A DNA stretch of 63,971 nucleotides, counting the filler, from an uncultured Methanoregulaceae archaeon (lineage in GTDB: Archaea > Halobacteriota > Methanomicrobia > Methanomicrobiales > Methanospirillaceae), in assembly GCA_964530035.1 (NCBI GenBank). It is 12 parts of 12 records of this genome, joined end to end, with 100 filler letters (N's around TTAATTAATTAA, not from the genome) between each part and the next. Parts side by side here need not be neighbours in the genome. Positions count along the whole stretch, not along the records: positions 41,350 to 46,385 come from CAZGXZ010000169.1; 11 more parts are not named here. One strand, 5' to 3'. The position numbers were made by a program, and so were the translations under genes. Below are positions 35,810 through 51,147 of this stretch, piece by piece. The notes beneath the pieces were generated by a model that saw nothing but the letters and a program-made list of their open reading frames with translations, was not told the origin of the DNA and ran no database searches. Every line of letters starts with the position of its first letter. The first letter of the stretch is position 1.

Positions 35810-36564
<755 letters not shown>

Positions 36565-36638: not shown

Positions 36639-37718
36639 GTGAACGGCATGGTCAGTGAATCTCCACGGATCATCTCGTGGAACGTTACCCTGCGGTGTCC
36701 GCTGAAGTGCTCCCACTGCTACGTGGACGCGGGTGAACACGAGGCCCCGGGTGTGCTCTCGACACAGGAAGCGTTCTCGGTCATCGACCAGGTGAGACGT
36801 GCAGGGACGCCGGTTGTCGTGCTGAGCGGGGGGGAACCGCTCATGCGGGACGATATCTTTGAGATCGCATCCCATGGCACGGAACAGGGCCTCCGGATGG
36901 TCATGGGGACGAGCGGGGTGCTTCTCGATAAAAAGGCAGCGGAACGGCTCCGTCACGCAGGGGTACAAGCTGTTGCCGTGAGCCTTGACTCGGGGAGTCC
37001 AACCGTCCACGACGCGTACCGGGGGATGGACGGGGCATGGGAAAAAGCGGTTGCCGCCCTCACCCACTGCCGGGAATCAGGCATAGGGACCCAGGTGAAC
37101 ATGACCGTGATGCGGCCCGGGACAGGCGACGTGGAGGAGGTGGTGCGCCTGGGGACTTCACTGGGAGTCCGCGACTTCCAAGTCTTCCTGCCTGTTCCCA
37201 CAGGCCGTTCCGGGGGTGCCGGAAACGGGACACCTGGAGAGTACGAGGAGCTCATACGGGAGCTCCTGCTGCTTGGCCGCAAGACCGGGGTCCGTCTCCG
37301 CCCGACATGTGCACCCCAGTTCCGCCGTATCGCCGATGGTCTTGGTATCAGCGACCCGGGCTGGGGGAGGGGCTGTATCGCAGGGATATCCTACTGTCGG
37401 ATTTACGCGGACGGTGACGTGACGCCATGTCCTTACCTCCCGGTGGTGGCGGGAAATGTTAAAAAGACACCTTTCCATGAGATATGGTCCGGTTCGCCAG
37501 TATTTGCTGCACTCCGAGACCCGGGCCTCCTCCAGGGGAAGTGCGGGCGGTGCGGGTTTAAGACGGTCTGTGGCGGCTGCCGGGCCAGGGCGTACCGCGG
37601 GGGTGGAACGGTGTCTCCGATGGCCTGCGACGGGCTTGCCCCGCCGTCCGGCATCCCCGGGGATCTCTGTGCCGAGGACCCGTTCTGTCCGTACGAACCG
37701 GGAGGTGTGGCAGGGTGA
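36639..37718 (+). CDS. ahbD: Radical SAM/SPASM heme b synthase AhbD-like
   Basis: PRIISWNVT.RCxxxCxxC, PTCAPQF.RI, GCIAG, CxxCxxxxxCxxCRA motifs. Confidence 0.8.
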   Translation: MNGMVSESPRIISWNVTLRCPLKCSHCYVDAGEHEAPGVLSTQEAFSVIDQVRRAGTPVVVLSGGEPLMRDDIFEIASHGTEQGLRMVMGTSGVLLDKKAAERLRHAGVQAVAVSLDSGSPTVHDAYRGMDGAWEKAVAALTHCRESGIGTQVNMTVMRPGTGDVEEVVRLGTSLGVRDFQVFLPVPTGRSGGAGNGTPGEYEELIRELLLLGRKTGVRLRPTCAPQFRRIADGLGISDPGWGRGCIAGISYCRIYADGDVTPCPYLPVVAGNVKKTPFHEIWSGSPVFAALRDPGLLQGKCGRCGFKTVCGGCRARAYRGGGTVSPMACDGLAPPSGIPGDLCAEDPFCPYEPGGVAG

Positions 37719-38227
37719 CGGAACACTCCCTCCCGGACCACACGGACCTCTCTGTCCTTGAGGCCCTCCAGGACGACTTTCCCATCGTGCCCCGGCCGTT
37801 TCTTGAAATAGCACAGAGGACCGGGATATCCGAACAGGACCTCCTTGCCAGGCTGAAACGGCTGTCAGATACAGGAATACTCCGCGGGATATCCCCAGTC
37901 CTTGAAGCCCGGAATCTTGGGATCGGTTCAGCGACCCTGGTCGCTGCACATGTCCCTGAAGGAAGGGTCGCGGAGGTGGCGGCGATCATCAGCGGCTACC
38001 CGGAGGTATCCCATAACTTCCGGCGTGACCACCAATACTCCCTCTGGTTCACGATATGCGGGAAGGATGACAGGGAGGTCGTACGTGTCCTTCAAGAGAT
38101 CGCGGACCGGGCGGGGATCGCCCCTGAAAATCTCCTCAACCTCCCGACGGTTGAACGGCTGAAGATTGACGTGAGGTTTCCGTTCCTCACGAAGGGGCAG
38201 GGGGACAGCGGCCATGGACAGGGTTGA
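37715..38227 (+). CDS. ahbA: Siroheme decarboxylase alpha subunit
   Basis: LQDDFP..PRPF, VSHNFRR and WFT motifs. Confidence 0.88.
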   Translation: MTEHSLPDHTDLSVLEALQDDFPIVPRPFLEIAQRTGISEQDLLARLKRLSDTGILRGISPVLEARNLGIGSATLVAAHVPEGRVAEVAAIISGYPEVSHNFRRDHQYSLWFTICGKDDREVVRVLQEIADRAGIAPENLLNLPTVERLKIDVRFPFLTKGQGDSGHGQG

Positions 38228-38702
38228 CCGGGAGCTCCTCGCGGCCCTCGAGGACGGTATCCCCCTCGTGGAACAGCCGTACCGCGAGATCGGGAGGCGA
38301 CTCGGCCTTGCAGAGGAGGAGGTCCTCGCACGGGTCAGGCGCCTGAAGGAGGAAAGGGTCATCAGGAAGGTCAGGGCACGCATCAACCAGCGGCTTGCCG
38401 GGATAGAGGCAAACGCACTGGTCGCCTGGAGGCCGTGCGGAGACCGCGAGGAGGCAAATGCGGCCCATATTGCGGTCTCTCCGGCCATCACCCACTGCTA
38501 CAGGCGTAAACCTGTCCCGGGAAAGTGGGAATACACTATTTACACGGTGCACCATGGAAGGACCCGGGAGGCGGTCCTCGCCGAGGTCCGGGCGCTCTCG
38601 GAGGAAACAGGCATCGGCGAGTACCTCGTCCTGTTCAGCACCAAGGAGTTCAAGCGGGTCCCGAACGTGAGGATCGGGGAGAACGGGGGCGGCCTGGCAT
38701 GA
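38214..38702 (+). CDS. ahbB: Siroheme decarboxylase beta subunit
   Basis: THCYRR, YTVHHG and FSTKEFK motifs. Confidence 0.88.
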   Translation: MDRVDRELLAALEDGIPLVEQPYREIGRRLGLAEEEVLARVRRLKEERVIRKVRARINQRLAGIEANALVAWRPCGDREEANAAHIAVSPAITHCYRRKPVPGKWEYTIYTVHHGRTREAVLAEVRALSEETGIGEYLVLFSTKEFKRVPNVRIGENGGGLA

Positions 38703-39901
38703 ACCGGATCACCCAGTGCCTCCATGGCAGGGGGACGGTGAGCTCGGTTTTGAAACACCAGGGAAGGCCGGCTTCCGGGGTGCCCGGCCGGATGCTCGCC
38801 TTTACGGGAATGATACGGCCTGTCGTGTTCTGGAATGTCACGAACCGGTGCAACCTGTCGTGCAGGCACTGTTACGGGCAGTCCGGGCCGGAAGACCAGG
38901 GAGGTGCCGAGCTGACCACGGTAGAAGCCCTTGCCCTGATTGACGACCTTGGCGCAACGGGAGTCCCGCTCATCCTCTTCACCGGTGGAGAGCCGCTCAT
39001 GAGGGGGGACCTCTTCCAGCTGGCTGAACACGCCCGGTCACGGGGAATCATGACCGCCCTGAGCACGAACGGCACCCTTATCACGCCGGAAACCGCGGGG
39101 AGGATCAGGGAGAGCGGGATAGGGTACGCCGGGATCTCGCTTGACGGGAGCACTGCGGTGACCCACGATACGTTCCGCAATACCGTGGGGTCTTTTGAGA
39201 AGGCAACGGCCGCATTCGGACACTGCCGTGACGCCGGGGTCAGGTGCGGGGTGAGGGTTACCCTCACGCGGGAAAACCACAGGGAACTGGGAGCCCTCGT
39301 CGACCTTGCCCGGGACCTTGGAGCGTCCCGGTTCTGCCTGTACTGGCTCGTCCCCTCCGGGAGGGGACACGATCCCTACGACAGGCTCCAGCTCCGGCCT
39401 GGCGAGGTCACGGCGGCACTGGACCTCCTCTACGAAAAGGCCCGGGAGACCGGCCCGGGAGAGATGGAGTTCCTGACCGTGGACGCCCCCCAGGACTGTG
39501 TCCACCTGCTGGGATCGATGGAGCGTGACGGGTCGCCGGACCTCCCGGAGGCCCGCGACCTCGTAGTATCCCAGAAGGGGGGCTGCAGCGCCGGCGACCG
39601 CGTTGCAGACATCGACCCGTGGGGAAACGTGTACCCGTGCCAGTTCGCGAGGTTCCCGGATTTCCTCGTCGGAAACGTCAGGGAACGTCCCTTTTCCGGA
39701 CTGTGGCAGGATGCGGCCAACCCTGTGCTCTCGCGTTTCAGGGCGGAAAAACGGCGTGCCGGAGGTGCATGCAGCACGTGCAGCCATTCCGACCTCTGCG
39801 GCGGTGGGTGCAGGGTCAGGGCGCATGTCCTCACGGGAGACTTCCTGGCACAGGACCCGTTCTGTTATGTCCATCCGCCTGATGCCGGGGCGGGTGACTG
39901 A
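38699..39901 (+). CDS. ahbC: Radical SAM/SPASM Fe-coproporphyrin III synthase AhbC-like
   Basis: N-terminal extension, PVVFWNVT..CNLSCRHCY, YAGISLDG, LTVD motifs; start at ATGA overlap. Confidence 0.82.
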   Translation: MNRITQCLHGRGTVSSVLKHQGRPASGVPGRMLAFTGMIRPVVFWNVTNRCNLSCRHCYGQSGPEDQGGAELTTVEALALIDDLGATGVPLILFTGGEPLMRGDLFQLAEHARSRGIMTALSTNGTLITPETAGRIRESGIGYAGISLDGSTAVTHDTFRNTVGSFEKATAAFGHCRDAGVRCGVRVTLTRENHRELGALVDLARDLGASRFCLYWLVPSGRGHDPYDRLQLRPGEVTAALDLLYEKARETGPGEMEFLTVDAPQDCVHLLGSMERDGSPDLPEARDLVVSQKGGCSAGDRVADIDPWGNVYPCQFARFPDFLVGNVRERPFSGLWQDAANPVLSRFRAEKRRAGGACSTCSHSDLCGGGCRVRAHVLTGDFLAQDPFCYVHPPDAGAGD

Positions 39902-41249: not shown

Positions 41250-41349
41250 NNNNNNNNNNNNNNNNNNNNNNNNNNNNNNNNNNNNNNNNNNNNTTAATTA
41301 ATTAANNNNNNNNNNNNNNNNNNNNNNNNNNNNNNNNNNNNNNNNNNNN

Positions 41350-42704
41350 CCTATGTGGATGTCGCTGCGTATACAGGTTTTCCGGAGATGATGGGTGGCA
41401 GGGTCAAGACGCTTCACCCGAGAGTCCATGGAGGACTGCTTGGGAGGCGGGGGACTGATGATGCAGTCATGGATGAACACGGGATCGTGTCCATCGATCT
41501 CCTTGTCGTGAACCTCTATCCCTTTGAGCGCATGTCCGATCAGGCATTATCCCTGCCAGAACTCATCGAGTTCATCGATGTCGGCGGGCCTGCGATGATC
41601 CGTGCGGCTGCGAAAAATTACAAGGACGTGGCGGTCATCACCGATCCCGCCGATTATCCGCTGGTCTCTGATGCAATCAAAAGAGGAGGCTTCACCGGGG
41701 ATGAGCGGTTTACTCTTGCAATCAAGGCATTTTCCAGAACTGCTGCATATGATGCCGCGATCAGCAACCACCTGGGTTCTATCGGGACTTCCTTTCCTCC
41801 TACTCTCACCCTGCAGTTCTGTAACGGGCGGCCTCTCCGTTACGGTGAGAACCCGCACCAGGAGGGGGCGATATACGGTGTAACCGGGATTGCCGGTGCG
41901 GTACCTTTCCAGGGAAAACAGATGTCCTATAACAATTATCTTGATTTGAACTCCGCCTCAGCCCTGGTCCGTGAGTTTGAAGAGCCCTGCGCGGTTATCG
42001 TCAAACACAACAACCCCTGCGGGGTGGCATCGGGACCGAACCTCCTCCAGGCATATGTTGAGGCAAGGGAAGCGGACCCTGTTTCTGCTTACGGTTCAGT
42101 TGTCGTATTGAACCGCGAGGTGACGCGTCCCCTCGCCGAGGAAGTCGTAAAAACCTTTGTGGAGGTCCTTGCAGCCCCCTCCTTCACCCCGGAAGCACGC
42201 GATATCCTTTCGGGCAAGGAAAACCTGCGGATCATCGTCCTCGGTTCCCCGGTGAACGGAGTGGAAGTACGGTCGATCGAGGGAGGGCTGCTCGTTCAGA
42301 AGACCCCGTACAACAGGGAACACTGGAAGGTCGTCACCGACAGGGACCCGACTCCTGCCGAATGGAGTGCCCTCCAGCTCGCATGGAAGGTATGCGCGCA
42401 CACGAGGAGCAATGCCATCGTCTTTGCGAACCAGTTCAGGACCCTTGGGATAGGTGCCGGACAGATGAGCCGGGTCGATTCGGCCAAGATCGCAATGCAG
42501 AAAGCCAGCGGTTCTCTGAAAGGTTCGGCGGTGGGCTCGGATGCCTTCCTGCCGTTCCCTGATACCCTTGAAGTTGCCGCATCTGCGGGGGCAACTGCAC
42601 TGGTCCAGCCAGGTGGTTCGATACGTGATGATGAGGTTATTACAGTGGCGAACAGGCTCGGAGTCGCCATGGTCTTCACCGGTACGCGGCACTTCAAACA
42701 CTGA
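41350..42704 (+). CDS. purH: Bifunctional AICAR transformylase/IMP cyclohydrolase (5' truncated)
   Basis: GRVKTLHP, IDVGGP, RYGENPHQ, KHNNPCG and GQMSRVD motifs. Confidence 0.97.
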
Positions 42705-42793
42705 ACCGGGGTACGATCCGGGCTCCCTCCCTTTTTGAGATGAAACGAGGTACCCTCGTCGCCCTCCTTTCATACAGGGCTTTTTCTGAACGA

Positions 42794-42990
42794 TTTAAAG
42801 AGAACCCCCAGTATGGTATGTCCTGTCAGAGGCAGGTGGAGCCTGTTTTGAAATACACAACCGGGAAAAAAGAAATGCTGCGCTGACCGTTTGGTTGAAC
42901 ACAGATCCCTACGAGTGAACCAGGATGGTGCTGGTAACCGCTGTCTTTTATACGGCAGTTTCCATACACTCCTATGTGGTGGAATTTTCC
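42794..42990 (+). promoter_or_regulatory. Putative TATA box (TTTAAA 42794) and ~165-nt hairpin-rich leader of the cimA operon
   Basis: Five consecutive stems, several with G-U pairs on the + strand; the last one covers the GGTGGA SD. Confidence 0.45.
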
Positions 42991-44479
42991 ATGACAGATC
43001 GTTTTATTCTCTGAAAGGATCCGTTTTTTCGACACTACCCTGCGTGACGGGGAACAGACCCCGGGCGTTTCGCTCTCACCTGAAGCGAAGTGTGAAATTG
43101 CAGCGAAATTATCTGATATCGGTGTTTCGGTCATCGAAGCCGGATCTGCCGCTGCATCCGAGGGGGAACGTGAAGCTATCAGAAAGATCGCCGGAGCAGG
43201 TCTTAAGGCTGAGATTTGCACCTATGTCCGTGCTCTCCGGGAGGACATCGATTACGCTGCCGATCTCGGGGCCGACTCGGTTCACCTTGTGGTTCCGTCC
43301 AGCGACCTTCATATCCAGAAAAAACTGCGGAAGACAAGGGATCAAGTCCTGGAGATGGCGTTTTCCGCGGTTATGTATGCCAGGGACCGCGGCCTTAAAG
43401 TTGAGCTCTCGGCCGAGGACGCATCGAGGGCTGACCCGGGATATCTCCTCTCCCTGTTCAGGGGAGGCGTGGAACGAGGGGCCGACCGTTTGTGTTTCTG
43501 CGACACGGTAGGGTTGCTTACCCCCGAACGGGCGTCAGAGGTTATTCCTCCGCTCTGTGTTGCGCCACTGTCAATACATTGTCATAATGACCTTGGCTTT
43601 GCCCTGGCCACCACGGTTTCCGCCATCAGGGCCGGGGCTGGTTGTGCGCATACAACCGTGAACGGACTGGGCGAACGGGCTGGAAATACAGCATTCGAGG
43701 AGCTCGTCATGTCGCTCGAAGTCCTTTACGGCTGTCGGACCGGCATCAGGACAGAGGAGATATATCCCCTTTCGTCGCTGGTCTCACGTCTTACCGGGAT
43801 TCCCCTTGCGACAAACAAGGCCATAGTGGGAGAGATGGCCTTTACCCATGAAAGCGGTATCCATGCCCACGGAGTGCTCAAGGAACCAAGTACGTACGAG
43901 CCGGTACGCCCTGAATCCGTGGGCCGGAGACGCCGGATCGTCCTGGGCAAGCATTCGGGGTCGGCATCAGTTGATGCGGCACTGTCCGAGTTGAACTATC
44001 ACCCTGATGAACCCCAGAAAAAGGAGATCCTCAAGAGGATCAAGGTACTTGGCGATGAAGGAAAACGGGTCACCGATGCCGACCTTATGGCAATAGCAGA
44101 GGCGGTCATGGGTCTTACCTGCCAGCCGACCCTGAAGCTCCGTCAAGTGACGGTAGTCTCTGGTAATACCGTCATTCCGACAGCATCCGTAACCCTTGTC
44201 GTCAAGGGTGAGGAGGTCACCGGGGCAGCAACTGGAACGGGTCCTGTGGATGCCGCCATAGAGGCACTCAGGAAGTCGGTTGCCGACGTTGCTGATATCA
44301 GGCTCGAGGAATATCACGTCGATGCCATTCGCGGCGGGACCGACGCCCTTGTCGATGTGACGGTGCGTCTTGCGAAAGACGGAAAAATCATTACGTCACG
44401 GGGCGCCCGTACAGATATTATCATGGCATCCGTGGAGGCAGTGATATCCGGGATGAACCGGCTTATTGGGAGGGAATGA
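42991..44479 (+). CDS. cimA: (R)-citramalate synthase (LeuA family); ATG is out of frame with the enzyme frame
   Basis: [14 protein letters not shown] (from ~43025), [19 protein letters not shown] and GPVDA motifs; regulatory domain; upstream of ilvBN. Confidence 0.85.
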
Positions 44480-46155
44480 TGAAGAACGGAGCACGGATAC
44501 TGATTGAAAGTTTGAAAAGGGAGGGCGTATCGACAATCTTCGGGTATCCCGGGGGCTCTGTCCTCCCGATATACGACGAGCTGTACGACTCGGACCTCCA
44601 GCACATTCTTGTGAGGCATGAACAGGCCGCAGCCCATGCTGCCGATGGATACGCAAGGGCGAGCGGCAGGGTCGGGGTTTGCCTTGCCACGTCCGGGCCG
44701 GGGGCCTGCAACCTCGTCACAGGCATTGCCACTGCATACATGGACTCAGTACCCGTCGTTGCCATAACCGGACAGGTCCCGACCGGCATGCTGGGAAACG
44801 ACGCTTTCCAGGAGTCGGACATAACCGGGATTACTCTCCCGGTGACCAAGCACAATTACCTTGTAAAACGAACGGAAGACCTTGCACGGGTCATCAGGGA
44901 AGCCTTTTTCATATCAGGTACCGGAAGGCCCGGCCCGGTCCTGGTCGACCTTCCGAAGGACGTCAATACAAGGGAGATAGAGTACAAACCTCCTTCGGAT
45001 GAGGAGATGCAGATACGGGGATACAAACCGACCTTCAGGGGGCATCCCAAACAGATAGCCCGGGCGCTTGAGTTCCTGCTCGAGGCAGAAAGGCCGGTGA
45101 TATATGCCGGTGGCGGGGTGATCTCATCAGGCGCCTCGCCGGAGCTTATCGCGCTTGCAGAACGTCTCTCCATACCCGTCACCACGACGCTCATGGGCCT
45201 CGGGTGTTTCCCGGGTGATCATCCCCTGAATCTCGGCATGCTCGGGATGCACGGGACCGAGTACGCCAACTTTGCAGTCACTGAAAGCGATTGCCTGCTG
45301 GCGGTCGGGGCCAGGTTCGACGACCGTGTCACGGGCAAGGTGGACACCTTCGCGCCTCATGCCTCGATTATTCATATCGATATTGACCCGGCTGAAATTG
45401 GTAAGAACAAGCCTGTTGATGTACCCATCGTCGGTGACGTCCGCTCTATCCTTGCCGATATGCTTGCAATGCTGAAAAGGGACGCATCACATGACGCCTG
45501 GGTCGAACGTGTCAGGACATGGAAGAAGAAGCACCCGCTCCGGTTCCGCGATGACGGCTCTCTGCGTCCCCAGATGGTCGTAAAGGCATTATCAGATGTC
45601 CTGTCACCTGACGGCATCATCGTGAGCGAGGTCGGCCAGAACCAGATGTGGGCCGCCCAGTACTATGTCTTCAGGAAACCCCGGACGTGGATAAGCTCCG
45701 GAGGGCTTGGGACGATGGGGTACGGTTTTCCGGCGGCGATCGGTGCAGCATATGCATGCCCGGACTCCCAGGTCTTTGACATAGCGGGCGACGGCTCCAT
45801 CCAGATGAATATTCAGGAACTCGGAACAGCAGCCCAGTATAAAGTTCCAGTGAGGATTGCAATCCTCAACAATCAGTACCTGGGAATGGTCAGGCAATGG
45901 CAGGAACTCTTCTATGACCGGAGGTATGCCTACACAGAGCTCCCTCCTGTTGACTTCGTGAGGATTGCAGAAGCGTACGGCGTGGATGGCATCAGGGTAG
46001 AGGAAAAAGAGGAGATCGCCCCTGCAATACATGCAGCAATGGAAGCTGAAGGACCGTTTGTCCTGGATTTCCGCGTTACCAGGGAGGAGAATGTATTTCC
46101 GATGGTTCCTGCCGGGGCGGCAATCAACGAAATGATTGGAGGTCACAAGCAATGA
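44476..46155 (+). CDS. ilvB: Acetolactate synthase large subunit
   Basis: FGYPGG, RHEQ, TSGPG, RFDDR and GDGS..N TPP motifs. Confidence 0.96.
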
Positions 46156-47332: not shown

Positions 47333-48199
47333 TCATGAAACGAAATAATCCACGATATTCCTGAAGAACTCCATGTTCACCGAATCTGTCGGAACGGACT
47401 TTCCCTCGCGTTTCAGCCGTTCCTTCCGGAGAGGCCAGTCATAGAGGTTCACGAACTCCATCGCCCGTTCGGGGTGGGGCATGAGCCCGAGGACCTTTCC
47501 GTCAGCCGAGGTAATCCCGGCAATATCGTTGACAGAACCGTTCGGGTTCCAGGGGTACTCCCCGGCTGCCGGGCTCATGTCCTCACGCACGTACCTGAAC
47601 GCGACCATGTCCTCTTTTTCGAGTCTCCGGAGCGTCTCTTCTGAGCAGGAGAAGTTCCCCTCCCCGTGGGAGACCGGGCAGTAGAGGTGGGAGAGGCCTT
47701 TCGTCCAGACCGTGTCAGCAACGGGTTTCAGGGTGACGAAGCGGCACTCCAGTACACCTTTCCGGTTCGGCATGAGGGCGATCCCACGGCTGTGGTGGGC
47801 ATCGAGCGCCGGTACCAGGCCAAGGTTCGCGAGGATCTGGAAGCCGTTGCAGATCCCAAGGACGAGGTTGTCACCTGACAGGAAAGCGTCGAGGTCCTTT
47901 TGCAGGTTGTTCCTGACCCGGTTTGCATATGCGTTCCCGGCGCCGGTGTCGTCCCCGTACGAGAAACCACCCGGGAACACGAGGAGACGGTATCCGGAAA
48001 GGGTCTTCTCACCGGCAATCAGGTCATTGATATGGACGGTGTCGGATCCCATCCCGGCACGGAGGAGGGCCTCGGCCGTCTCCATCTCCGAGTTTATCCC
48101 GTACCCGCTCATGATGAGGGCCTTGTGTCGTGTCCTGAGCGGAGGATGCACCCGTCCTGTCCCGGAATGAACCGGGGGTTCCGTGGTATGGCGCTCCAT
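47333..48199 (-). CDS. purQ: FGAM synthase glutaminase subunit
   Basis: PGGFSYGD, GICNGFQ, HGEG and MPHPER motifs. Confidence 0.95.
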   Translation of the reverse strand: MERHTTEPPVHSGTGRVHPPLRTRHKALIMSGYGINSEMETAEALLRAGMGSDTVHINDLIAGEKTLSGYRLLVFPGGFSYGDDTGAGNAYANRVRNNLQKDLDAFLSGDNLVLGICNGFQILANLGLVPALDAHHSRGIALMPNRKGVLECRFVTLKPVADTVWTKGLSHLYCPVSHGEGNFSCSEETLRRLEKEDMVAFRYVREDMSPAAGEYPWNPNGSVNDIAGITSADGKVLGLMPHPERAMEFVNLYDWPLRKERLKREGKSVPTDSVNMEFFRNIVDYFVS

Positions 48200-48201
48200 G
48201 G

Positions 48202-51147
48202 TCAGTACCCCCAAAACTGCTGCTTGTAGGCAGTTTCCATCACGCTCACCCGCTGCTCGATGAGGGTCCTGCCGTCCTGTCTCACCCGGAACACCGTCCC
48301 GCCCACCGTTCCCATGAAACGTGCCTCAGGACCCATTACGGTCTCAAATGCCTGCCGGTCAACCGGGGCGACCGTGACGAGAACCCTGCCGAGTGACTCG
48401 GAGAAGAGGTGGAGATCGGGACGCACACCCTCCGGGATGGTAATGTCCATACCGAGCATCCCGGCGATCGAGACCTTCGCAAGGGCGATGAGGAGCCCGC
48501 CAAGACTGACCGGGAAGGCCGAGGCCACGAGACCGCGGTCGATCGCTCCGGCGAGCCTCCTGTACCTTTCTTTTGCTTTTCCGATGTCGAGTGCCGGGAC
48601 GTTCCCGCCTTCGATACCAAGGAACCCGGCATACTCCGACCCGCCCAACTCATCGAGGGTCCTGCCGAGGAGGTATACTAGATCGCCGTCGACCTTGACA
48701 TCCATCGACACCGCCTTCCCGGCATCGGGGTGGACGCCGATCGAGGAGACAAGGAGCGTCGGGAGGACCGAAACCTTCACCGGTCGTCCATCGGGATCGA
48801 ACCCTGAAAAGTCATTGAACATGCTGTCCTTGCCGGAGATGAACGGGATCTGGAAGGCCACTGCCGCATCGCGGCACCCGAATGCGGCCTGTTTGAGCTG
48901 CCAGAGCCTCGCGGGGTCGTCCGAGGAGCACCAGCAGAAGTTGTCGAGGAGGGCGACGGCGTCCGGCGGGATGCCGGTTGCCACCAGGCCCCTGATGGCG
49001 GTGTCGATGACGGCGACCGCCATCCCGTACGGGTCGATCTCCGAGTAGGACGGGAAGAGGCCCTGGGAAAGGCCGACGGCCTTTTGGGAGCCCGGTACGA
49101 CCTTCGTGAGGGTCGCAACCCCCTGGACTCTCCCTTTGCCCTGGACCGGCCCGAGGACATGGCCACCCTGGACGGTGTGGTCGTACTGGACCGAGATGAA
49201 CTCCTTCGAGCAGATATTTTTTCGTTTCAGCATCGAGATCAGCAGGTCATCGAGGCGGTCAGGGCACCGCGGGAATGGGGCGGCTGCAGGAGCCTGGACC
49301 GGCGTAGTCTTCAGGTGTTTTTTCGGCAGCCCGTCATGGAGGAAGTCGAGGGTGATGTCCATAACGGTAGTCCCGTGGTATTCGACGGTGCACCGTCCTG
49401 TATCAGTAAAGGTCCCGATCACCGTGGCCTCAACCTCCCGGCGCTCCATGAGGGCGAGAAACGCTTCCAGTTTATCCGGCGGGACGGCGAGCGTCATCCG
49501 TTCCTGCGACTCGGAGATCCAGATCTCCCACGGCGCCATGCCCGGGTACTTGAGCGGCACCCGGTCGAGCTGCACGTGGCAGCCGCCTGACTCCTTCGCC
49601 ATCTCGGCGACCGAGCAGGAGAGGCCGCCGGCACCGTTGTCCGTGATGCTCCGGTAGAGGGCCCTGTCCCTGGCCTCTTTCACGATGACGTCAGAGAACT
49701 TCTTCTGGGTGATCGGGTCGCCGATCTGGACGGCGGTTACCGGGCTTGCCGGGTCAAGGGCCTCTGATGAGAAGGTGGCACCATGGATCCCGTCCTTTCC
49801 GACCCGCCCGCCGACCATCACGACGAGGTCACCGGGCCTCGCCTGCTTCTCGTGGAGCACTGTCCCGTCATGCACCCGGGGCATCACGCCGATCGTGCCG
49901 GCAAAGACCAGGGGTTTTCCCCGGTACCGGTCATGGAACCAACACCAGCCCTGGGGTGTCGGGATCCCGGAGCAGTTCCCGCCCACGCCGACACCACGCA
50001 CCACCCCTTCGAAGACCTGTCTCGGGGAGAGTACGGGATTTTGACCGTTTTTACCCCGGAAAAGGCCTGGATCGGTGTCAGGGTCTCCGACGCAGTACCC
50101 GTACACGTTGATGCAGGGTTTCGCCCCGAGGCCGAAGCCGATCGTATCGCGGTTCACCCCGACGATGCCGGTTAGAGCGCCTCCAAACGGATCGAGGGCC
50201 GAGGGCGAGTTGTGGGTCTCTACCTTGCAGGTCACGAGATGGTCGTCATCGAAGATTATTGCACCCGAGTTATCGGTGAACACTGATACACAGGTGTCCC
50301 TGTCCCCCTTTGCCGCCCGGACAGCGTTGGTCGCCCCCTGGATGCAGGTCCTGTAAAGTCCTTTCGGGACGTCGTCGTCCATCGCGGATGCAAAGATCGT
50401 GTGCTTGCAGTGTTCGCTCCAGGTCTGGGCAAGGGACTCAAGCTCGACGTCCGTCGGCATCCTGCCCGCCTTCCTGAAATAGTCCCGTATCGTGTGGATC
50501 TGGGCCAGGTCAAGAGCAAGGGGACCCCGGCGCTCCTTCGTGACCGGGTCGGGAATGCCTTCCTTGCCGATTCTTGCCAGTTCCGCATCGCTGATCTCCA
50601 GGTCCACGACCCCGGCTTCCTGGAGTTCGTGGAGGTGGACAAAGGGTGTTGACGGCTCCATGCCCCGTGAGCCATACTCCTCGCGGCTTTTTACGTGGAC
50701 CCGGTTTACGAGGGGGTTTCCCAGGCTCCCGGCCAGTTTCCGGAGTGATTCAGGGTTGAGGTTCCCGGCGACAAGGAACAGCCGGGACGAAAAGACTGCC
50801 TCTCCCTCGCCGAACCCGAACCCGAAATAGTCCTCGATGGTCTGCCGGGCGGTCGTCCCGGTGTTGTCGGTGACCCCGGGAAGGAAACCGACCTCGATGG
50901 CAAAATCAAAGCTGGCTTCCGTGGGCCGGTCGACCAGGAACTCCTGGACGACAGGGTTGGTGAGCTGTCCACCGATTTCCAGGAGCTCGGCCGGGGTGAA
51001 GTCCCGGGAAGAGGTCGCAATGGTATAGACCTCGACGAGGTGAAGGGCATCGACAGGAAACCCGAGCGAGCGGGCCCTCTCGGTCCGGGTCTGCAACCGG
51101 GGGTCGGACACGAACCTGACCTCGATCCGGTGTACATGGGAAGCCAT
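48202..51147 (-). CDS. purL: FGAM synthase PurL with N-terminal PurS-like extension (981 aa)
   Basis: WSEHCKH, KVETHNSPS, DNGAGG, SESQERM and SGKDS motifs. Confidence 0.95.
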   Translation of the reverse strand: MASHVHRIEVRFVSDPRLQTRTERARSLGFPVDALHLVEVYTIATSSRDFTPAELLEIGGQLTNPVVQEFLVDRPTEASFDFAIEVGFLPGVTDNTGTTARQTIEDYFGFGFGEGEAVFSSRLFLVAGNLNPESLRKLAGSLGNPLVNRVHVKSREEYGSRGMEPSTPFVHLHELQEAGVVDLEISDAELARIGKEGIPDPVTKERRGPLALDLAQIHTIRDYFRKAGRMPTDVELESLAQTWSEHCKHTIFASAMDDDVPKGLYRTCIQGATNAVRAAKGDRDTCVSVFTDNSGAIIFDDDHLVTCKVETHNSPSALDPFGGALTGIVGVNRDTIGFGLGAKPCINVYGYCVGDPDTDPGLFRGKNGQNPVLSPRQVFEGVVRGVGVGGNCSGIPTPQGWCWFHDRYRGKPLVFAGTIGVMPRVHDGTVLHEKQARPGDLVVMVGGRVGKDGIHGATFSSEALDPASPVTAVQIGDPITQKKFSDVIVKEARDRALYRSITDNGAGGLSCSVAEMAKESGGCHVQLDRVPLKYPGMAPWEIWISESQERMTLAVPPDKLEAFLALMERREVEATVIGTFTDTGRCTVEYHGTTVMDITLDFLHDGLPKKHLKTTPVQAPAAAPFPRCPDRLDDLLISMLKRKNICSKEFISVQYDHTVQGGHVLGPVQGKGRVQGVATLTKVVPGSQKAVGLSQGLFPSYSEIDPYGMAVAVIDTAIRGLVATGIPPDAVALLDNFCWCSSDDPARLWQLKQAAFGCRDAAVAFQIPFISGKDSMFNDFSGFDPDGRPVKVSVLPTLLVSSIGVHPDAGKAVSMDVKVDGDLVYLLGRTLDELGGSEYAGFLGIEGGNVPALDIGKAKERYRRLAGAIDRGLVASAFPVSLGGLLIALAKVSIAGMLGMDITIPEGVRPDLHLFSESLGRVLVTVAPVDRQAFETVMGPEARFMGTVGGTVFRVRQDGRTLIEQRVSVMETAYKQQFWGY

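Follow-up and report, generated by a model that had tools for sequence, protein, structure and literature searches.

In bacterial leu, ilv and thr attenuation, a short leader ORF with cognate codons, placed before the first enzyme, senses aminoacyl-tRNA. How archaea tune their amino-acid synthesis genes to supply is, to our knowledge, poorly known. In bacterial prfB, which encodes release factor 2, an autoregulatory +1 frameshift occurs at CUU_UGA with an internal Shine-Dalgarno (SD) sequence 3 nt upstream, and the frameshifting passages of a 2016 review name, among known +1 stimulators, an internal SD 5′ of the site and a hungry codon in the A site (PMC5009743). The same passages cover yeast Ty1, which slips by +1 at CUU_AGG_C, and name no known starvation frameshifting with a starvation-specific functional product (PMC5009743). 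Archaeal recoding on record comprises, in the relevant section of another review, the -1 frameshift of fucA1, viral tail genes and chlD (PMC8211752). For Haloferax leuA2 (HVO_1510), Pfeiffer and Dyall-Smith (2021) speculated about slippage and about translation only under leucine shortage; their passages on this gene place the mapped TSS in H. volcanii 2-4 bp from an out-of-frame ATG, and report that in proteomics an 18-residue peptide (~43-61) is missing and a peptide from residue 62 is seen (PMC8305020).

The locus described here lies on record CAZGXZ010000169.1 (G000:C169) of an uncultured Methanoregulaceae archaeon, within an analysed stretch of 63,971 nucleotides in which contigs are stitched together with N gaps (hereafter the window, along which all positions are counted). 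On its plus strand, the frame of a LeuA/CimA-family synthase runs from stop to stop over 42995-44479 (494 codons), bounded 5′ by the TGA at 42992-42994. The DTTLRDGEQ motif of the enzyme begins at 43031, and the first ATG, GTG or TTG in its frame is a GTG at 43289, 98 codons in and deep within the catalytic domain. A preliminary description of this DNA had reported that the frame has no such codon between the TGA and the catalytic motif, and that the SD-preceded ATG at 42991 opens a mini-ORF in another frame; all coordinates were reproduced, as were the GGTGGA, its 7-nt spacer and the seven codons. This leader ORF (42991-43014, +) consists, in the zero frame, of 7 sense codons and a TGA (43012-43014), and is one base out of register with the enzyme frame; its SD (42978-42983, +) was read from the sequence, and across cimA loci anti-SD pairing is highest at -13 from leader starts. 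A TATA-like box, also read from the sequence (42946-42952, +), would place the transcript start ~15-18 nt before the leader ATG, and an in-frame uORF occupies 42974-42994 and ends at the ATGA stop. Within the leader, TTT (43003-43005, +) is the predicted P-site codon of a +1 shift and the Ile codon ATT (43006-43008, +) its predicted hungry A-site sensor. After such a slip, the synthase would be read over 43007-44479 (+), 490 codons from 43007, giving 495 aa with 5 leader residues included. The gene for the acetolactate synthase large subunit, ilvB (44476-46155, +), has an ATG that overlaps the cimA stop and is followed by ilvN at 46152. Elsewhere in the window, purH lies upstream of cimA (41298-42704), and purQ/purL-like ORFs were seen by eye on the minus strand (47333-51147). 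Two radical-SAM-like ORFs stand on either side of two AsnC/Lrp-like ORFs at 36639-39901, a set that presumably recalls the alternative haem pathway cluster ahbABCD, with a catalase-peroxidase-like fragment upstream (36019-36564).

CimA catalyses the first step of threonine-independent isoleucine synthesis. The window gene is an archaeal LeuA/CimA/AksA synthase: it scores above the curated cut-offs of TIGR02090 (494.8; cut-off 484.75) and NF002085 (616.4; cut-off 517), with the DTTLRDGEQ motif and a C-terminal regulatory part, and its homologues carry PF00682, PF22617 and PF08502. The closest named homologue is from Methanolinea (79%), which makes the host a Methanomicrobiales methanogen; homologue names in NCBI are mixed, many being D-/(R)-citramalate synthase and others 2-isopropylmalate synthase, and archaeal CimA is not found among solved structures. 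We compared loci from 41 relatives and from 61 class-level, 61 phylum-level and 31 haloarchaeal genomes (overlapping sets), taken as best matches or as a hand-picked subset of the listed matches; 232 motif hits became 221 once 11 duplicates were dropped, and one fetched locus (L135) had no motif hit. The tree resolves three clades, with 99 cimA (the window gene included), 101 leuA-like and 21 aksA-like members, and support for the window gene's clade, which it shares with full-length haloarchaeal paralogues, is 0.96 in a tree that leaves HVO_0644 and MJ1392 themselves outside. Full-length and short haloarchaeal paralogues are 38-44% identical; the corresponding passage gives 39% identity for HVO_0644 and HVO_1510 (PMC8305020), and disruption of HVO_0644 is described as causing isoleucine auxotrophy in the cited portion of a second paper (PMC4300041). 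We use the cimA label because the full-length and short paralogues mirror HVO_0644 and HVO_1510 and loss of HVO_0644 brings isoleucine auxotrophy, and the window gene is likely a citramalate synthase acting at the first step of isoleucine synthesis. The ilvB neighbourhood is not diagnostic for cimA, because HVO_1510 itself adjoins ilvB1 (HVO_1508), as given in the same paper (PMC4300041).

The candidate shift site was described by a 12-base profile that covers positions -9 to +2 relative to the candidate P-site codon; it leaves out the next codon and requires an open leader from ATG or GTG. Scores of at least 6 were reached by 69/99 cimA, 77/101 leuA and 0/21 aksA loci; because the training set was these very loci, which are kin, and the threshold was our own choice, these figures are counts and not P values. 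The codon after the site matches the pathway: Ile in 68 of the 69 scoring cimA loci (66 ATT, 2 ATC; L028 has CTT) and Leu in all 77 scoring leuA loci (56 CTT, 14 TTA, 3 CTA, 2 CTC, 2 TTG). The P-site codon, descriptive since NTT is part of the profile, is TTT in 65 and ATT in 4 of the 69 cimA loci, and TTT in 35, GTT in 28 and CTT in 14 of the 77 leuA loci. The enzyme-frame codon that overlaps the site is TTA in 68/69 scoring cimA loci, and TTA makes up 2% of Leu codons in the window's own genome; a null that holds only the peptide fixed expects Ile codons in 6.1/69 cimA loci vs the 68 observed. For leuA the same null expects Leu in 65.4/77, which makes the leuA test weak; wherever TTT would abolish the Leu codon in leuA (58 cases), the overlap codon is TTC without exception. 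TTT-A alone is not unique to the site, as an internal in-frame TTTA is also present.

Among the scoring loci, the nearest upstream ATG lies in the leader frame in 64/69 cimA and 63/77 leuA (127/146); leaders run for 4 to 24 codons before the site, and the zero-frame stop follows 1 to 14 sense codons beyond it. A canonical in-frame start is wholly absent from 31/69 cimA and 35/77 leuA scoring loci, and no in-frame ATG occurs within 30 codons in 67/69 cimA and 62/77 leuA (the other 15/77 leuA loci have one), whereas all aksA controls have an ATG (21/21). A stop within the leader span closes the enzyme frame in 59/69 cimA and 44/77 leuA loci. The preliminary description had singled out the out-of-frame ATG, the TTT-ATY and the nearby stop for comparison across Methanomicrobiales cimA 5′ ends; these are conserved, and the leuA paralogue has them with a Leu codon. 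Start annotations of cimA and leuA in databases are inconsistent. TATA-like motifs, found with a loose pattern and without a null, occur in 51/52 Methanomicrobiales cimA loci, with a median position of -42 relative to the leader ATG, and the same kind of search places them at medians of -29 and -32 from the ATG of leuA leaders in Methanomicrobiales and haloarchaea. Because of these distances, the leader ATG would be the first AUG of an mRNA that is SD-led in cimA and leaderless in leuA. One Methanosphaera aksA-like locus (L329) has no ATG, GTG or TTG in frame before the catalytic motif and carries an ATT behind a G-rich SD-like stretch where its relative L293 has ATG, possibly an AUU start or an error.

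Single contigs span 42720-43500 in 2/4 compared runs (two studies) with 0 differences and 0 gaps; both runs are possible sources of the window DNA and are thus not fully independent. In a same-genus genome (L002) the layout is identical, the out-of-frame ATG and TTT-ATY recur across the first 30 orthologue loci, and enzyme frames are intact in all orthologue matches. The 1-nt assembly error that the preliminary description had allowed for therefore fails: an error is ruled out by the contigs without differences, by the L002 layout and by the element scored in 52/56 Methanomicrobiales cimA loci, and we regard the comparative evidence as a stronger argument here than the contig agreement. From other organisms, contig matches are confined to ~42976-43023 and some brief segments of the gene, which places the leader with the most strongly conserved sequence of the region. 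Contigs of two RNA-labelled runs, probably DNA, did not extend across the site.

Among loci below the threshold, 9/30 cimA and 6/24 leuA lack an in-frame ATG within 30 codons, and by eye 7/9 of these cimA and 6/6 of these leuA, the leuA of the window's own genome included, share the layout with the cognate codon. The remaining sub-threshold loci have ordinary starts, mostly as entire families, and plain ATG starts occur in many lineages. The own-genome leuA (L031; G000:C33, ~735-796, outside the window) lacks an in-frame start, and its leader carries CTT-CTT, at a profile score of 3.5. In haloarchaea, the leader reaches an Ile codon in 12/12 cimA loci, 9 times after GAA and 3 times after TTT, with a search pattern that required Ile, and short leuA genes have GTT-CTT at the equivalent register in 28/28 fetched loci. 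Nine haloarchaeal cimA loci (L128, L141, L145, L146, L150, L249, L250, L253, L257) have longer leaders and a conserved stretch before GAA-ATT; the GAA P-site codon in haloarchaeal cimA may reflect a different slip step. In one family (L028, L029, L061), cimA and leuA lie side by side in divergent orientation behind separate leaders, and the sensor position of the L028 cimA is the Leu codon noted above. An in-frame ATG has been gained inside the element in L013, L114 and L176; these three and L239, L068, L069 and L086, in which an in-frame ATG was gained or the leader replaced, look like natural constitutive versions. Outside the phylum, among the genome-collection matches listed, we found the layout in two Bathyarchaeia cimA and in the cimA and leuA of one Odinarchaeia genome; it was not found in the Methanosphaera, Methanobacterium and thaumarchaeal loci examined, and no bacterial locus among the 80 listed scored at least 6. 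As read from these loci, the layout is shared by Methanomicrobiales, further methanogen families and haloarchaea, and some Bathyarchaeia and Odinarchaeia have it too.

The bases at -9 to -3 from the P-site codon (42994-43000, +) form an internal stretch complementary to the anti-SD, weak here with the GATC core only, and may act as a prfB-like internal SD stimulator. Pairing with the anti-SD, a sequence seen at the 16S 3′ end in 4/4 relatives, has its maximum nearer to the P-site codon (-8 in cimA, -10 in leuA) than to the start codon at initiation sites (-13 in cimA, -11 in leuA). A hairpin is predicted over the SD and leader AUG (42975-42996, +) from a single-sequence fold, and we treat it as a lead: single-sequence folds reach z <= -1 in 22/34 Methanomicrobiales cimA loci vs 1/21 aksA, with arm sequences that vary, and starts of aksA and leuA on average lack the hairpin. 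No consensus hairpin emerged from RNAalifold when 39 loci with differing loop lengths were aligned without gaps. If formed, the cimA 5′ hairpin might reduce initiation, or it might leave the anti-SD available to the internal site. The 42974-43100 region folds with z -2.73, to which this hairpin contributes part, and a search for a 3′ stimulatory structure at 43007-43080 found folding no better than shuffles (z 0.68). A bacterial-type scan found no terminator-like site at 42690-43100. We rejected a leader-peptide transcription attenuator, given the single Ile codon, this lack of a terminator-like site and the 31/69 loci without a canonical start.

Compared with prfB as described in the passages cited above, the cimA and leuA loci share a short zero-frame ORF, a product in the +1 frame, an NUU P site, a predicted slow A-site sensor and, though weak in the window copy, anti-SD-complementary bases 5′ of the site. 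In prfB, however, the A site is a stop codon read by the regulated protein, whereas in cimA and leuA it is a sense codon for the end product of the pathway; the host here is archaeal, two paralogues have interchangeable sensor codons, and re-pairing in cimA is imperfect. By this analogy, the cimA element would work like prfB without being a prfB member, with Ile or Leu in the A site instead of a stop. Starvation frameshifting and yeast Ty1 resemble the proposed cimA shift in their +1 slip at a slow sense A-site codon, though that of Ty1 is slow constitutively (PMC5009743, frameshifting passages). In the fucA1-type cases an archaeal chromosomal enzyme needs a frameshift, as cimA would, but the chromosomal ones covered in the section cited are -1 or lie at internal sites (PMC8211752). 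Haloferax HVO_1510 belongs to the same gene family, with the same out-of-frame ATG and the idea of slippage under leucine control; in the passages on this gene its authors left CTG vs ATG open and gave no shift site or sensor codon, and did not bring in cimA, isoleucine or methanogens (PMC8305020). The loci L204 and L216 match the residue numbering of that paper. With the site located, the annotated N-terminal peptide of HVO_1510 is predicted not to exist as such, and a leader-frame origin of the residues before Phe-47 would account for the missing peptide; its absence can also have technical causes. Relative to bacterial attenuation, cimA and leuA have one or two cognate codons and a leader that overlaps the gene, which often has no start of its own.

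From the layout and its conservation, frameshifting of some kind at the cimA site is very probable, and we consider it likely that a programmed +1 frameshift at TTT-ATT, rising when Ile-tRNA is scarce, gives entry to the enzyme frame. Ribosomes would initiate at the out-of-frame ATG at 42991. With Ile-tRNA plentiful, ATT would be decoded and translation would stop at the TGA at 43012, so that a 7-residue peptide would be made in place of the enzyme; under Ile-tRNA shortage, the A site would stand empty and the peptidyl-tRNA-Phe would slip from UUU to UUA, probably aided by pairing of the bases at -9 to -3 with the 16S 3′ end. Translation from 43007 onward would then produce CimA, so that the end product would control its pathway through elongation. 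In leuA, an identical module would use a Leu codon as its control, and the control of cimA could extend to ilvB-ilvN by coupling, given the ilvB ATG that overlaps the cimA stop. The preliminary description had already proposed a +1 slip at TTT-ATT into the enzyme frame; the conserved site and the cognate codons support this, but the re-pairing of UUU to UUA is imperfect and the exact step is one that we infer. UUU_A in cimA gives a wobble mismatch, whereas UUU_Y and CUU_Y in methanogen leuA fit, and re-pairing is poorer for GUU_C (haloarchaeal leuA), AUU_A (one methanogen family) and GAA_A (9/12 haloarchaeal cimA). The slip step may differ from that of prfB, because re-pairing is imperfect for UUU-A and worse for the last three. 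We rejected a -2 slip, for which no conserved re-pairing was seen by eye.

A +1 shift could be real and needed and yet run at a set ratio, or answer to a cue other than Ile-tRNA such as growth rate or tRNA modification, and so merely keep the enzyme low. This explanation, which we hold unlikely, draws on the same layout evidence, and on the Leu codon of the L028 cimA; U-ending codons read by wobble (ATT 66/68, CTT 56/77) could moreover be slow whatever the supply. It would not predict that cimA keeps Ile while leuA keeps Leu through five different codons, a pairing that holds across methanogens, haloarchaea and single Bathyarchaeia and Odinarchaeia loci. The enzyme might instead start in frame at a non-AUG codon (ATC at 42998 here; ATT or GTG in relatives), with the leader ORF acting through competition or re-initiation. 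An enzyme-frame ATC or ATT does stand at -5 in 60/69 cimA loci and a GTG at -8 in 30/69, and database annotators have used such starts, if inconsistently. Yet ATY would also be conserved if GAUC pairs with the anti-SD, the spacing of the SD suits the leader ATG (peak -13), with ATC ~20 nt away, and leuA has GTC or GTT at -5 in 22/77 loci and GCT in the own-genome copy; the TTA in 68/69 loci would go unexplained. By reasoning alone, stalling on the Ile codon would leave ATC hidden beneath the ribosome, and re-initiation past the leader stop would yield enzyme when Ile is plentiful. Initiation at ATC, which the preliminary description had listed as an alternative, is thus weakened by where the SD lies, by the leuA codons and by the constraint on TTA while keeping the support of ATC/ATT at -5, and we give an in-frame non-AUG start little credence.

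There remain correction at the RNA level (transcriptional slippage or editing), readthrough of the uORF at 42974-42994, and an assembly error or pseudogene, which even together are highly improbable. The site does hold a T4 run, but many leuA sites lack a homopolymer (CTT-CTT, GTT-CTT), and transcriptional slippage was rejected for that reason. The uORF readthrough raised in the preliminary description fares no better: an in-frame ATG uORF ending at an ATGA stop has counterparts in just 11/69 cimA loci and is absent in 58/69. Against an assembly error or pseudogene stand the contigs and the intact orthologue frames described above.

Beyond the single locus, we think there is a good chance that the hungry-codon +1 shift is a modular amino-acid sensor of archaea, inherited with the leuA/cimA pair, its A-site codon reset to Leu or Ile, and that its range takes in methanogens, haloarchaea and some Bathyarchaeia and Asgard archaea. 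The first enzyme of each pathway would then be made when its own end product runs short. Three scans of the window's own genome for further amino-acid genes with the module recognised none besides cimA and leuA; these scans are insensitive (they work at a level where own leuA scores 3.5) and the genome is 86% complete. The relaxed one of them gave 9 candidates, with cimA and leuA the sole recognised amino-acid genes. Apart from PMC8305020, a literature search with incomplete coverage of subscription papers revealed neither a test of the mechanism nor any statement on cimA; the accessible portion of PMC13759103 holds nothing on cimA or leuA slippage, and the words leuA, isopropylmalate and citramalate occur 0 times in the accessible text of the recoding review (PMC8211752). 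The preliminary description knew of no recoding loop of this kind described in archaea, which holds for cimA as far as this search goes, but slippage had been speculated for haloarchaeal leuA2 (PMC8305020).

The reading of cimA and leuA given here was therefore partly foreseen in print for the leucine paralogue, in the passages on HVO_1510 (PMC8305020); the shift site, the sensor codon and the extension to cimA and isoleucine go beyond those passages. The relevant passages of the two reviews record neither a +1 frameshift in an archaeal chromosome nor a starvation frameshift that serves a purpose (PMC5009743, PMC8211752). If the proposal is true, these genes would provide a natural, purposeful case of starvation frameshifting, of a kind absent from the passages cited of the 2016 review (PMC5009743). 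The site is exact, conserved and mutable, and the swap of its codon is a built-in control. The N-termini of many cimA and leuA annotations would need correcting, and the control would be relevant to engineering branched-chain amino-acid or citramalate production in methanogens. In these archaea, control at the level of elongation would do the job that leader-peptide attenuation does in bacteria.
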